Assembly: GCA_001779595.1 (NCBI GenBank)
Contig: MFKO01000002.1
Location: 148,311 to 204,366, forward strand
Direction of reading: 5' to 3'
Source of the DNA: Candidatus Kaiserbacteria bacterium RIFCSPHIGHO2_01_FULL_46_22
GTDB lineage: Bacteria; Patescibacteriota; Minisyncoccia; Phycocordibacterales; UBA918
DNA: 56,056 nt
Notes under the pieces: generated by a model
What the model saw: only the letters and a program-made list of their open reading frames with translations
What the model was told of the DNA's origin: nothing
Database searches by the model: none
Program-made: the position numbers and the translations under genes
Part shown: one piece after another, positions 2,428 through 5,696 of the stretch
Layout of the letters: every line of letters begins with the position of its first letter
How positions within the stretch are numbered: the stretch's first letter is position 1

Positions 2428-2495
2428 GCATAGAAACGATTGATCTAATAAACAACGTTGCATTTACTGATTTTTTCAGCAATAATGGGCAACCT

Positions 2496-2713
2496 GCCGC
2501 CTTAGCAGAGATGGGTGGAGGTGAGACAATCCGGTGGATTGTCGAACGGTTTTGTATATACATACAGTCCCTCTTGGTTTGGTCATAAGAAATTTTTGAG
2601 CCGGCTTAGCGAACGTTATGATAAGCAAAGGGATTTGCTTATCATCCGCAGGGGTAGAGCAACAGTTTGTATTAACATACAACCTTCGTTCATTCGGTCA
2701 TAGAAAAATGAGA
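2496..2713 (+). repeat. Two degenerate tandem copies of the tRNA-Thr leader plus 5' half
   Basis: GCCG(C/G)CTTAGC at 2496, 2600 and 2714 (the tRNA); AACGGTTTTGTA at 2545; GGTAGAGCAAC at 2653; shared CATACA...GGTCATA..GAAA spacer. Confidence 0.7.
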
Positions 2714-2786
2714 GCCGGCTTAGCTCAGTTGGTAGAGCAACGGTTTTGTAAACCGTAGGTCGTCAGTTCAAGCCTGACAGCCGGCT
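2714..2786 (+). tRNA. tRNA-Thr(UGU), 73 nt, discriminator U, CCA not encoded
   Basis: Full cloverleaf: GCCGGCT/AGCCGGC acceptor, GCTC/GAGC D stem, ACGGT-TTTGTAA-ACCGT anticodon arm, GTCAG-TTCAAGC-CTGAC T arm. Confidence 0.97.
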
Positions 2787-2817
2787 CTCATTTTTTTACG
2801 CCACTCCTTCACTCGGC

Positions 2818-2858
2818 TGTAAACCGTAGGTCGTCAGTTCAAGCCTGACAGCCGGCTC
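2818..2858 (+). repeat. Exact 41-bp direct repeat of the tRNA-Thr 3' half (att-like scar)
   Basis: Identical to 2747-2787, starts at the anticodon; 30-bp spacer between copies. Confidence 0.92.
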
Positions 2859-2898
2859 AAAGTTTTCTTACGATCCTTATCGCGTGGGGCCCTTTTCT

Positions 2899-2938: not shown

Positions 2939-4489
2939 ATGGAGGATAACGCTCATCTTTTGCCGTACGCCAGACGTTCCGACTTTCACGTAGGGAGGGC
3001 TACCGAACTTTCCGGTGGCAAGCGCAAGCTTTACCGTTTTCTGGAAATACTACCCGGTTTGGCTTCTTGGACTACCTTAATCGGTATTGTGCTGTTGTCG
3101 ATTTACAGGCCATTTCTTGCGGCTTACTTCATTATAGCTTTCTCCATCTTTTGGGTGTTGAAGACGGCTTTTTTGTCCTATCACCTGCGTCACAATTGGC
3201 GACGCCTACGACACCATATGTCGCTTGATTGGCAGGATTTGGTGAGCCGTTTTGAACACGAGCATCTGTATCATTTAGTGATTTTTCCATTCTATAAAGA
3301 ACCACGGGAAGTAATTGAAGCGACCCTAGAGTCTTTGGTGCGAGTCAGTTACGATAAGAAAAAGCTGATTGTCGTACTAGCTACAGAAGAGCGCGCAGGG
3401 GGAGAAGCAGCACAAATAGCTACCGAGATGAAGGAGCGTTTTGGTGAAGAGTTTGGTCACTTTGAAATCACCTCTCACCCAGCCAACGTTCCGGGCGAGA
3501 TGGCAGGGAAGGGATCTAACGTATCTTATGCGATCGAAAAGGTCCGAGAAAAACTAATCGAACCAAACAAGATCCCATACGAGCATATAATCGTTTCTAA
3601 CTTCGATATAGATACTGTTCTCTATCCTGACTATTTCAACTGCTTGGTGTGGCATTTTATGACCGCTGAGCGTCCTCTTAAAAGTTCGTTCCAGCCAGTA
3701 CCGTTGTTCAATAACAATCTTTGGCAGGCAGGGTCACTGTCACGCGTGGTAGCAATGTCTTCAACCTTCTGGGAAATGGTGCAGCAGGAAAGACCCGAAC
3801 GAATGGCAACTTTTTCATCTCACTCAGTATCATTTCAGGCGCTTTACGAAGTGAACTACTGGCAGAGAAATATGGTGAGCGAGGATTCTCGTATTTACTG
3901 GAATTTAATGATGGCCAACGACGGAGAGTACGATGTGATTCCACTTTCGTATCCGGTGTCGATGGATGCAAACGTAGGTGGCAATCTTTTCGAAACAGTT
4001 AAAAATATCTACAAGCAACACCGGCGCTGGACTTATGGTGTGGAGAATTTTTCCTATATTGCCTACCACTTCACACGGAACAAGAACATTAGACTTGGCA
4101 AACGTATCAAAATTTTGCTTCAGCAGGCAGAAGGTTACTGGTCATTGGTTACAAATCCAATTATGCTCTTTGTACTAGGGTGGGCACCAATCTTTCTCGG
4201 TGGCCGCGTCTTCCATGAGACCGTGCTATCCTATAACCTGCCTATTGTAGTTAGAAACCTGCTAATCTTGGCAATGTTTGGTCTTGTTATATCGTCAATT
4301 ATTTCGTTGTCACTAGCACCGAAGCGCCCGGCTCATCGTTCACGTTTTGCCTACGTTGTTATGGCTATACAGTGGCTTTTAGTGCCTTTCACGATGATTA
4401 TTTTCAGCGCCTTGCCTGGACTAGATGCGCAGACTCGACTAATGTTTGGCCGTTATATGGGCTTCTGGGTAACTCCGAAAAAACGGTAG
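2939..4489 (+). CDS. Membrane-embedded GT2 (processive, cellulose-synthase-like) glycosyltransferase
   Basis: DID (DxD), SED and QHRRW (QxxRW) motifs; 2 N-terminal and several C-terminal TM helices. Confidence 0.88.
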   Translation: MEDNAHLLPYARRSDFHVGRATELSGGKRKLYRFLEILPGLASWTTLIGIVLLSIYRPFLAAYFIIAFSIFWVLKTAFLSYHLRHNWRRLRHHMSLDWQDLVSRFEHEHLYHLVIFPFYKEPREVIEATLESLVRVSYDKKKLIVVLATEERAGGEAAQIATEMKERFGEEFGHFEITSHPANVPGEMAGKGSNVSYAIEKVREKLIEPNKIPYEHIIVSNFDIDTVLYPDYFNCLVWHFMTAERPLKSSFQPVPLFNNNLWQAGSLSRVVAMSSTFWEMVQQERPERMATFSSHSVSFQALYEVNYWQRNMVSEDSRIYWNLMMANDGEYDVIPLSYPVSMDANVGGNLFETVKNIYKQHRRWTYGVENFSYIAYHFTRNKNIRLGKRIKILLQQAEGYWSLVTNPIMLFVLGWAPIFLGGRVFHETVLSYNLPIVVRNLLILAMFGLVISSIISLSLAPKRPAHRSRFAYVVMAIQWLLVPFTMIIFSALPGLDAQTRLMFGRYMGFWVTPKKR

Positions 4490-4526
4490 CTCCAAGTTTC
4501 AAGTTACAAGGTTTCAAAGCCTAGTA

Positions 4527-4557
4527 ACTTAGAAACTGAATGACTTAGAAACTGAAT
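4527..4557 (+). repeat. 15-bp direct repeat x2
   Basis: ACTTAGAAACTGAAT at 4527-4541 and 4543-4557, directly before the PEGA-gene ATG. Confidence 0.85.
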
Positions 4558-4559
4558 TT

Positions 4560-5696
4560 ATGTCTCCACAAGTACAACCTCTATCATATCGTCACCGTTT
4601 TGTGTTTTTTTACTTTTTAACGGGAATTTTCGTACTGGCGCTACCATTTCTTTATCTCTATGCCACCGGCTATCGTCTTTCATCACTTGGCGGCAACTTG
4701 ATATCAACCGGAGGCCTGTATGTAGCCACCGAACGTTCTGGTGCCCAGATTTATATTGATGATGAATTAGTACGTGAGACACGCATCTTCCGTCGTGCCT
4801 TTTATGCGCAAGGACTAGATGCCAAGACGCATAAGATTTATGTTCAAAAAACCGGCCATCACACTTGGGTTAAAGAATTGCCTGTTTACGCACATATCGT
4901 CACCGAGGCACAGGCATTCAACCTGCCTCTAGTACCGCAAGTGCGGATAATTACCGAGTGGCAGACTGAAGCTGGTGTATCTGTATTAACTTCTATTTCT
5001 CCAATCTTAAAGAACGCTTCAAGTACTAATCAGGTACTTTATGAACCAAGAGCCTCAACCTCTACTCTGGCCGTAAATTCAGAGTACGTGCAGCTAATTT
5101 CATTATTTAAGGAAACCTCAAACTACACAGAAAGCGTACTGGACCGCGCACGCGCTAATATAACCGGATCAAGCGCAACATCGACAGCTACTACCACAAA
5201 AGAATGGCGCGGCGTACAGTTATACGAAAAAGATAACGAAGTGTATGCCGCTTTCGTGGGCAATAAAGAAGAGATGCCTTATTACTATTGTGCAGAAGCT
5301 TTCCCGACTTGGGAGGAATCAAACGCCACTTCTACTGCAACTGCAAAGCATAATCTTGCGCTCACGCACGGAGCTTTAGAGGCAGCGACAGAAGTCGACG
5401 AGCTTGATCTTCCTGTACAGGCCATCTCAAATGAGGTTGAGTGCGATCCTGTAATTAAAATCGATCGCAAGAATGAAACTATTTCGGATTTTGACTTCTT
5501 CCCAAACAGCACAGACTTAATGATTATTGCTACTGAAAGCGGAATCTACGTAATAGAGATCGATGACCGTTCCTGGCAAAACCGCCAGCCACTTTTGCTC
5601 GGAAATAATTTAACCTTCAAAGTTGTAGGTAGCTCTGTTTATGCTTATGATGGAAAAGTTATCTATCAGATTAGTATCAGTCAAAACTGGTTTTAA
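4560..5696 (+). CDS. Membrane-anchored PEGA-domain protein
   Basis: N-terminal TM, then GGLYVATERSGAQIYIDDEL...HKIYVQKTGHHTW (PEGA-like); Ser/Thr-rich extracellular stretches. Confidence 0.75.
   Translation: MSPQVQPLSYRHRFVFFYFLTGIFVLALPFLYLYATGYRLSSLGGNLISTGGLYVATERSGAQIYIDDELVRETRIFRRAFYAQGLDAKTHKIYVQKTGHHTWVKELPVYAHIVTEAQAFNLPLVPQVRIITEWQTEAGVSVLTSISPILKNASSTNQVLYEPRASTSTLAVNSEYVQLISLFKETSNYTESVLDRARANITGSSATSTATTTKEWRGVQLYEKDNEVYAAFVGNKEEMPYYYCAEAFPTWEESNATSTATAKHNLALTHGALEAATEVDELDLPVQAISNEVECDPVIKIDRKNETISDFDFFPNSTDLMIIATESGIYVIEIDDRSWQNRQPLLLGNNLTFKVVGSSVYAYDGKVIYQISISQNWF

Follow-up and report, generated by a model that had tools for sequence, protein, structure and literature searches.

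Why should the only UGU-type threonine tRNA gene of an ultra-small bacterium stand among broken copies of itself? The question is raised by a 56,056-nucleotide (nt) stretch (hereafter the window; contig MFKO01000002.1, positions 148,311–204,366, of assembly GCA_001779595.1) from Candidatus Kaiserbacteria bacterium RIFCSPHIGHO2_01_FULL_46_22, a Kaiserbacteria-like member of Paceibacteria within Patescibacteria, or the candidate phyla radiation (CPR), whose genome comprises 647 kb in 8 contigs with 46% G+C. We designate this genome G000; other G and L numbers denote related genomes and loci used for comparison. An earlier note on the window had described two degenerate 5'-half copies upstream of tRNA-Thr(UGU), each carrying a hairpin. 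Here we argue, with a confidence somewhat better than even, that these two dead copies (U1 and U2), together with a 3'-half copy downstream, are DNA-level relics of the serial replacement of tRNA-Thr by a clamped cassette, a gene form whose complementary leader and trailer extend the acceptor stem, and that they are carried passively in the leader of the pre-tRNA.

As listed in Table 1, the locus contains three units, and the starts given in the earlier note (2496, 2600 and 2714, with periods of 104 and 114 nt) were reproduced. The described design was recovered as well: each unit opens with the tRNA acceptor strand and TTAGC (GCCGCCTTAGC in U1, GCCGGCTTAGC in both U2 and the working gene) and reaches the anticodon loop (...TTTGTA), which appears as AACGGTTTTGTA at 2545–2556 in U1 and as AACAGTTTGTA at 2661–2671 in U2, the true loop lying at 2739–2750. 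Both perfect hairpins were confirmed, with 8 bp around GGT (2525–2543) and 12 bp around GGGA (2618–2645). Their placement in the D arm held for U2, where the hairpin breaks the D loop, but not for U1, where it lies between the D arm and the anticodon stem at about tRNA position 25/26. Relative to the tRNA, U2 shows a 39-nt D-loop insert, G29A and a shortened loop. The leaders of U2 and of the working gene, said to be duplicated, are ~70% alike.

The two upstream copies are real, but they are not the whole of the locus. A 3'-half copy that had been overlooked begins 30 nt past the tRNA and is identical to 2747–2787 of the working gene (41/41), and two nested inverted repeats had likewise been missed. 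The outer repeat I1 (2583–2606 and 2850–2873; 24 nt, 88% complementary) joins the leader and acceptor strand of U2 to the acceptor strand of the distal 3' half and its trailer, while the inner repeat I2 (2701–2720 and 2779–2798; 95% complementary) joins the tRNA leader with the tRNA trailer. Because of the 3' half and the two nested repeats, the locus is concentric: U1 is followed by a shell of U2 and the 3' half, which encloses a spacer, the tRNA and a second spacer, with the anticodon-loop TGTA flanking the inner insert left and right; the left spacers measure 42–43 nt and the right one 30 nt. It is at this TGTA that U1, U2 and the 3' half have their breakpoints. The minimum free energy (MFE) RNA fold of 2490–2880, in which I1 is paired, is a concentric tRNA-in-tRNA structure of −150.7 kcal/mol (z = −8.5 against shuffles). 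The motif TGTAT..ATACA, which makes up the fold-back hairpins B1 and B2, occurs in the whole genome only at these two sites, and G004 bears TGTAT-TATA-ATACA at the site equivalent to B2.

ARAGORN and Rfam called a single tRNA in the window, at 2714–2787, and neither called U1 or U2. In an Rfam scan with permissive thresholds (T-box and other families), all matches besides RF00005 at 2714–2786 had E values of at least 0.27 and scores far below the gathering threshold. Chance matching, which the earlier note had named as a possible objection, did not account for the copies: in collinear local alignment to tRNA nt 1–37, the score of U1 was reached by 3/5000 shuffles and that of U2 by 0/5000, and among 36,840 genome windows scores as high came only from real tRNAs.

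Table 1. Coordinates of features at the tRNA-Thr(UGU) locus (window positions) and of examples elsewhere in G000 and in relatives (prefixed positions).
Feature	Position	Strand	Description
Promoter-like element	2458–2486	+	TTGCAT 2458–2463, 17-nt spacer, AATAAT 2481–2486
U1	2496–2556	+	dead tRNA-Thr 5' portion: acceptor strand GCCGCCT, degenerate D arm, hairpin module, anticodon-stem 5' strand and loop to TGTA
U1 hairpin module	2520–2547	+	GGTGAGA-CAATCC-GGT-GGATTG-TCGAAC
Fold-back hairpin B1	2553–2566	+	TGTAT-ATAC-ATACA, from the U1 anticodon TGT
Left spacer 1 (U2 leader)	2557–2599	+	3' part 2583–2599 is the outer clamp 5' strand
U2	2600–2671	+	dead 5' half: acceptor strand GCCGGCT, D loop broken by hairpin module, then GGTAGAGCAACAGTTTGTA
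U2 hairpin module	2618–2653	+	ATGATAAGCAAA-GGGA-TTTGCTTATCAT and 3' flank CCGCAGGG
Fold-back hairpin B2	2668–2681	+	TGTAT-TAAC-ATACA, at the U2 anticodon
Left spacer 2 (working tRNA leader)	2672–2713	+	3' part 2701–2713 is the inner clamp 5' strand
Functional tRNA-Thr(UGU)	2714–2787	+	ARAGORN; Rfam RF00005, 71.5 bits; CCA not encoded
Right spacer	2788–2817	+	inner clamp 3' strand TCTCATTTTTTT, then 18 nt
Exact 3'-half copy	2818–2858	+	anticodon TGT to one base beyond the discriminator; partner of U2 in the outer shell
Outer-shell trailer	2859–2890	+	outer clamp 3' strand TCAAAGTTTTCTTA; foreign block ends here
Mini GIY-YIG gene	L122 939–1208		example
Mini GIY-YIG gene	L123 839–1087		example
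Mini GIY-YIG genes	L124–L141		examples
tRNA 3'-end reverse complement	C8:137161–137290		tRNA-Lys(UUU)
tRNA 3'-end reverse complement	C5:44385–44520		tRNA-Leu(UAG)
tRNA 3'-end reverse complement	C2:6870–6996		tRNA-Leu(CAA)
tRNA 3'-end reverse complement	C8:161800–161930		tRNA-His
tRNA 3'-end reverse complement	C8:90070–90198		tRNA-Gly

Where the parts of the locus come from was examined by comparison with relatives. The tRNA gene lies downstream of rpsB, tsf and a gene of 140 amino acids (aa) without assigned function and upstream of a GT2 glycosyltransferase gene, and the order tsf-unknown-tRNA-Thr(UGU)-GT2 is kept in ~70 of 80 related loci. In the closest relative, L041 (94% identity in tsf, 88% in GT2), the promoter is followed directly by the tRNA, with no units. 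The acceptor strand GCCGCC and the D-loop AGATGG of U1 are those of the functional tRNA of L041, whereas the working tRNA of G000 has GCCGGC and AGTTGG. Positions 2456–2520 are 81% identical to the L041 promoter and tRNA start; homology to L041 runs to ~2520 and restarts at 2891, in the region upstream of GT2. The working tRNA, in turn, is identical to that of G004 at 74/74 positions and to that of L041 at 66/74, although G004 is more distant from G000 (88% in tsf, 78.5% in GT2). G004 shares the sequence from 2666 onward at 88% and its spacers at 88–91% (91% for left spacer 2), and also has the distal 3' half, split there by a 75-nt hairpin. U1 is in addition 81% identical to an upstream unit of G020. 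L041-like flanks and U1 around a G004-like core make the locus a recombinant mosaic, with resident flanks and the first 20-odd bases of U1 joined to a foreign block at ~2520–2890. This supports the earlier proposal of recombination scars at the anticodon loop, as do the TGTA breakpoints, which are the same in relatives. A prepilin-like gene lies between tRNA-Thr and GT2 in L041 (4340–4870) and is absent in G000, which has the foreign block 2520–2890 in its place.

The alleles of tRNA-Thr(UGU) follow the tsf tree poorly: on this tree, which is short (194 aa) and weakly resolved, the T-stem types require 37 changes against 42.8 for shuffled labels and the acceptor types 30 against 35, so that both are almost as scattered as shuffled labels. 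The orientation of the gene to tsf is reversed in 9 of the 70 syntenic loci (L044, L048, L050, L052, L053, L067, L069, L078 and L079), by 8 separate changes scattered on the tree.

The same layout recurs in relatives and at other tRNA genes. Partial copies stand beside tRNA-Thr(UGU) in 24 of 63 tsf-linked loci, with 5' parts upstream in 13, partial copies downstream in 15 and both in 4; the other 39 loci have none. The breakpoints of these copies fall in or just past the anticodon loop. Upstream units run from nt 1 to ~25, continue with a hairpin and the anticodon-stem 5' strand and loop, and end in a fold-back palindrome centred 1–4 nt past the anticodon, which in G019 is an exact reverse complement of tRNA nt 21–36; in downstream units, a D arm and the same hairpin precede nt 26–76. 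Near-identical units form recent tandem arrays in G036, L053, L115, G110 and G223. Unit number, which the note had suggested comparing along with hairpin turnover, ranges from 0 in L041 through 1 in G004 and 2 in G000 to 3–4 elsewhere, and the hairpin stems differ between G000 and G004. The covariance model R1 found full-length hairpin units in ~30 genomes, belonging to many families, out of 301 drawn from across the order; U1 scores 60.5 bits with R1 but belongs to its training set, and R1 matches per genome are mostly ordinary tRNAs. In G000 itself, where the note had suggested looking for the pattern at other tRNA genes, a second locus of this design lies at C2:7079-7174, upstream of tRNA-Leu(CAA) (C2:6997-7078, minus strand); there a 5' pseudo-half (nt 1–26), with a TATATT box close upstream, is followed by an inverted GGTGAGA..TCGAAC module, an anticodon-loop remnant, a TTGTA..TACAA mini-hairpin and the tRNA. 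A fold-back palindrome of the same design lies at the anticodon of the unit at tRNA-Glu in G194.

Leader/trailer complementarity at tRNA-Thr loci is bimodal, with either 13–17 or 0–2 paired positions extending the acceptor stem. Such clamps occur in 13 of 30 loci with partial copies and in 1 of 39 without (p = 0.0013), and the single exception, L050, bears a downstream hairpin unit (the clamped loci are L048, L050–L053, L058, L059, L066, L073, L074, L076, L077, L079 and L081). The clamps combine an A-rich leader with a trailer ending in a T-run, and their sequences vary by locus while complementarity is kept, with 186 Watson-Crick, 15 G·U and 1 A·C pairs; the excess of G·U over A·C is the signature of pairing in the transcript. 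Gains and losses of the clamp number at least 9 on the tsf tree, and the five nearest relatives of G000 are all unclamped. Patchy on the tree and tied to partial copies, the clamped tRNA-Thr gene is thus a discrete form that travels with the pseudo-copies. In G000, the inner gene and the outer shell are both of the clamped form. The inner clamp and its T-run may constitute a terminator built around the tRNA.

Next, the two hairpins, which had been called unrelated, proved to belong to one family of modules whose flanks and loops are common across genomes. The members are ~27-nt palindromes found clade-wide, with a GGGA/GGN-type loop ((T)GGGA/G) and fixed flanks that define an orientation (GGTGAGA..TCGAAC and ATGA..TCATCCGCAGGG); ~40% have tandem G·A pairs at the stem base. 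In alignment A2, which comprises U1 and 27 units from other genomes (28 in total, of the form GGTGAGA-stem-GGN-stem-TCGAAC), both partners vary in 10 of 11 stem pairs and pairing holds in 87.6% of cells; covariation reaches a score of 0.525, compared with 0.177 for shuffled data (0/500). Modules are found in dead tRNA copies at a few fixed tRNA positions, with 2–3 copies in G000. The U1-type module is inverted at tRNA-Leu(CAA) in G000 and stands at tRNA-Leu(CAG), Ser and Met in relatives; in genomes of the same genus or order, modules of either orientation stand 40–140 nt ahead of tRNA-Leu(CAG), Glu, Val, Ser and Met. The U2 stem has no second copy in the G000 genome or the compared loci, while its flank pattern, ATGA..GGGA..TCATCCGCAGGG, recurs in the unit that precedes tRNA-Glu in G194, a genome of the same genus; the exact pattern GGGA-N(7-12)-TCATCCGCAGG occurs in 2 of 128 genus genomes, G194 being the sole other match. 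Stem mismatches show no RNA-type bias (7 G·T against 6 A·C), and this, together with the occurrence of both orientations, argues for DNA-level palindromes rather than RNA hairpins. In a metagenome scan, the 18-mer TTCGTTCATTCGGTCATA gave 21 matches, none beside tRNA-Thr and all apparently due to chance. The search against phage sequences proposed in the note gave only chance matches: GAGGTGAGA-N13-19-TCGAAC occurred >100 times in a scan of viral contigs, about the chance level, and none of the 80 loci examined forms a hairpin there.

The promoter-like element ends 9 nt ahead of U1. A block of this kind (TTGCAT/TTGCGA/TTGCAA-N17-(C)ATAAT) stands ahead of the tRNA, or of its first upstream unit, in L041, G010, G020, G022, G034, G001, L049 and L050, and on this conservation the element probably acts as a promoter; a generic promoter scan missed it because its −35 box matches at only 3/6 positions. 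No comparable block lies between the units and tRNA-Thr, and U1 and U2 must therefore, we infer, be co-transcribed with the gene. No nuclease open reading frame (ORF) is present at the locus (2428–2938).

The observations thus show how the locus is built, that its units have homologues in relatives, that its ancestry is mosaic, that the modules are portable and that clamps are linked to partial copies; the replacement history proposed at the outset builds on them. According to this proposal, U1 would be what remains of the 5' end of the original resident gene, which keeps its promoter and is fused to foreign sequence; U2 and 2818–2858 would be the two halves of a second copy split in the anticodon loop, with TGTA on both sides; and the centre would be a complete clamped tRNA-Thr cassette with its complementary leader and trailer of 13–17 nt. 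The block at ~2520–2890 would have recombined in from another Paceibacteria lineage, with the left crossover inside the 5' part of the tRNA and the tRNA itself serving as the homology arm for acquisition of the cassette. The palindromic modules would settle in dead halves, and only in dead tRNA copies, in either orientation. Replacement may be driven by a DNA break in the anticodon loop that is repaired by homologous recombination on a cassette-bearing donor taken up by natural transformation, and the modules may be recognition or by-product sites of a structure-specific nuclease, for which mini GIY-YIG proteins found in similar module settings in relatives would be candidates. U1 and U2 would ride in the pre-tRNA leader and be removed by RNase P. 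The clamps would act in RNA, holding the true halves paired despite the pseudo-halves and possibly terminating transcription.

Since a simple GIY..YIG regular expression applied to small ORFs near tRNA-Thr found nothing, a Pfam-based genome search was needed. This search detected single-domain GIY-YIG genes of 80–130 aa in ~55 of 60 relatives (G001–G060), with 1–7 copies each. In G045, such an ORF (Pfam E = 4e-14) has on one side a 14-nt 5' fragment of tRNA-Thr, interrupted by a GC-rich hairpin, and on the other the intact tRNA-Thr(UGU); the same layout is seen at tRNA-Val in G057. Among 20 sampled copies, 6 are within ~0.8 kb of a tRNA and four or five abut it, the abutted tRNAs being Thr, Val, Gln, Leu and Ser. 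Around the 20 genes examined lie GC-rich hairpins or inverted repeats of other kinds.

Several points weigh against serial replacement by a clamped cassette. TGGGA-type modules were not seen flanking the 20 inspected mini GIY-YIG genes, and the link to the nuclease is therefore circumstantial. In G000, a PF01541 search returned only a 454-aa UvrC-like frame and no mini GIY-YIG gene; the Y1 (RAYT) transposase family PF01797 had no match; and the recombinases amount to one Xer-like tyrosine enzyme and one serine enzyme 60 kb away, so that G000 at present contains nothing capable of driving the process. U1 lacks a 3' partner, gene conversion and not age could account for the identity of the 3' half, and the scatter of alleles is read from the weakly resolved tsf tree. 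Furthermore, the clamps behave as RNA structures and the outer one is intact, so the outer shell may have a role at the RNA level, and the co-varying stems and conserved loop of the modules could mean an RNA- or protein-binding function instead of selfish spread.

A broader claim, which we regard as possible but doubtful, is that the clamped tRNA cassette that replaces the resident gene represents an undescribed class of minimal selfish elements in Paceibacteria and probably in Patescibacteria at large. Where the anticodon or D region is broken, a copy of the cassette would enter, destroying the resident gene while supplying its function, and each invasion would add a shell of dead halves. The modules would mark dead copies and could serve structure-specific mini GIY-YIG (Ssn-like) nucleases as sites of recognition or immunity. 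The element would travel by natural transformation and homologous recombination, with the tRNA sequence as homology arm, and G000 would be a "burnt-out" case in which the nuclease was lost and the scars kept. tRNA genes are classic landing sites of mobile DNA, the known arrivals being phages and large islands that encode integrases. At this locus, little besides a tRNA gene and its RNA clamp would have come in, and portable hairpins mark what was left behind. If true, such a selfish replacement cycle would account for the poor fit of tRNA alleles to the organismal tree in these reduced genomes, for the changes in tRNA gene orientation and for the abundance of pseudo-tRNAs in otherwise stripped genomes. 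It would also parallel, in bacteria, an old idea that traces split and intron-bearing tRNA genes to conflicts with mobile elements. In practice, the units swell intergenic regions and can mislead tRNA annotation as well as predictors of att sites and islands in CPR genomes.

A search of the accessible literature found no description of tRNA fragments, pseudo-tRNAs or GIY-YIG genes at tRNA genes in CPR/Patescibacteria, and the replacement of a tRNA gene from inside is apparently undescribed; the opinion that no known feature class fits the locus well still stands. Among palindromes that spread, REP/REPIN sequences with RAYT, Rickettsia palindromic elements and Correia elements measure 25–150 nt, have co-varying stems with kept loops or flanks, and can land in genes, RNA genes among them. 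The modules resemble REP/REPIN in being short palindromes in several copies, with a conserved flank or loop and a co-varying stem, but G000 has no RAYT/Y1 and only 2–3 copies, which are tied to dead tRNA copies at fixed tRNA positions. The nearest described systems are Ssn and SegB. Ssn proteins are single-domain GIY-YIG nucleases of single-stranded DNA, for which oriented NTS/SRM hairpin repeats modulate transformation (PMC11893778). Common to both cases are short palindromes with oriented non-palindromic flanks, several per genome, and most relatives of G000 bear single-domain GIY-YIG genes of 80–130 aa; on the other hand, G000 has no ssn-type gene, and its modules do not match the NTS consensus and sit inside dead tRNA copies. 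A link between an Ssn-like system and the recombination of incoming DNA is plausible here. SegB is a free-standing GIY-YIG homing endonuclease of the phage T4 tRNA gene cluster (PMC2330249). Its likeness to the present case lies in a GIY-YIG gene adjoining tRNA genes (G045 and G057) and in flanking tRNA sequence that is inherited non-reciprocally, giving mosaic alleles; the L041-like flanks around the G004-like core may be an indirect sign of such flank co-conversion. The differences are that SegB is a larger phage protein that cuts the tRNA gene of a competitor, without pseudo-halves, modules or clamps, and that no nuclease gene is present at our locus.

Could the units instead function in the transcript? 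The earlier note had considered a co-transcribed array of tRNA mimics, decoys or small RNAs, and one may equally imagine a tRNA-like scaffold around the tRNA that guides folding, processing by RNase P/Z or RNase III, or termination, or that regulates or diverts factors binding tRNA-Thr. We consider such a function unlikely, although there is a case for it. The units lie between the promoter and the sole tRNA-Thr(UGU) and so are transcribed, and in this respect the proposal stood; the region folds concentrically and far better than shuffles; the clamps show RNA-type covariation (15 G·U against 1 A·C); the U1-type hairpin (hairpin A) keeps its loop and co-varies in its stem across families; and upstream units of relatives hold exact antisense of tRNA nt 21–36. 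A dedicated RNA function nevertheless found no support, because close relatives have between 0 and 4 copies, on either side of the tRNA, with modules in both orientations and no bias of G·U over A·C. The 39 loci without any unit, the differences in sequence and position between the U1 and U2 modules, the turnover of stems between G000 and G004, and the lack of an Rfam family match and of a splicing endonuclease (EndA, PF01974, absent from G000) also speak against it. Archaeal split, permuted and intron-bearing tRNA genes have complementary leaders and trailers and an intron at 37/38, and the locus recalls them in its anticodon-loop insert next to position 37 and in the complementary sequences that join 5' and 3' halves; unlike them, it belongs to a bacterium without EndA, its degenerate outer halves cannot make a tRNA, and the "intron" is the working tRNA. 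In bacterial rrn operons, stems formed by leader and trailer around the rRNAs are processed by RNase III. The clamps are similar in that long complementary flanks with RNA-type covariation surround a structured RNA, but they enclose one tRNA, measure 13–17 bp, end in a T-run and occur only in cassette-type loci.

Another explanation holds that islands with a tyrosine or serine integrase entered the anticodon loop of tRNA-Thr repeatedly and were later deleted to 30–45 nt, leaving attL/attR-type scars. Williams, in 2002, reportedly defined an anticodon-loop sublocation class of integration sites, with which the breakpoints agree. G000 also has one serine recombinase near another tRNA pair. As in the fragments of displaced tRNA genes that Islander finds at island and prophage ends with tyrosine-integrase att sites (PMC4383910), a partial-tRNA direct repeat, here the exact 3' half from the anticodon loop, stands beside an intact gene, the crossover falls in the anticodon loop, and the intact gene is part resident and part incoming. 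Against this, the stretch that separates the tRNA from each partial copy contains neither an integrase nor an island, at this locus or in the ~90 related loci inspected, and spacers measure 7–150 nt; exact loss of whole islands would be needed in dozens of lineages; moreover, integration gives one displaced fragment on one side, not nested two-sided fragments with clamps, tandem arrays and modules around incoming DNA that is nearly only a tRNA gene. The chance-level result with viral contigs is a further point against integrase scars, which we judge to be improbable.

To much the same low degree we credit local neutral duplication, in which slippage or unequal crossing-over followed by decay would have produced the copies and template switching would have made the hairpins de novo as quasi-palindromes, with no transfer and no element. 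The leaders are indeed duplicated with the units at periods of 104 and 114 nt, tandem units in G036, L053 and L115 are near-identical, the fold-back palindromes at the anticodon resemble template-switch products, and, where homologous to the tRNA, U2 and the 3' half hardly differ from the working gene. Local events, however, do not fit the affinity of U1 and both flanks to L041 and of the core to G004, the module loops and flanks common to different genomes and different tRNAs, the recurrence of breakpoints at the same loop positions in many lineages, or a clamp state that is discrete and scattered on the tree. Finally, chance resemblance or an assembly artefact is very improbable: the individual matches are short (11–19 nt) and the genome is a metagenome assembly in 8 contigs, but the shuffle and genome-wide controls speak against chance, and misassembly is unlikely because the copies are too divergent for collapsed or expanded repeats, the sole exact repeat is 41 nt long, and homologous units of the same design occur in independent assemblies (G004 and many others).

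Minor observations were made around the locus and elsewhere. A strong GC-rich hairpin (ACAAAACCGCGATGGCAGGCC..GGCCCGCCATCGCGGTTTTGT) at 1945–1985, 3' of tsf, is probably the tsf terminator, its NrrF-like Rfam matches being sub-threshold only. The sole serine recombinase of G000, a 334-aa frame (C2:211616-212071, minus strand), is ~760 nt from a tRNA-Ala(GGC)/tRNA-Asn pair. An integrase was considered for the displaced tRNA-Thr loci L044, L069 and L070 and rejected, as the ORFs between tsf and the tRNA are HAD-like, ABC transporter and unknown, with no recombinase; readings based on splicing (EndA) and on RAYT were set aside, both families being absent. In L044, a 296-aa ORF (4056–4946, minus strand) overlaps the inverted tRNA-Thr and has a weak, sub-threshold match to phage T7 endonuclease I (E = 0.004). 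In G000, 9 of 38 tRNAs have the reverse complement of their own 3' end 37–56 nt downstream, past a terminator-like hairpin, compared with 0/38 in the upstream control. These reverse complements are often broken by another hairpin, and five run into a shared element, CCTTTTGAG...CAAAAGGTGTAC.

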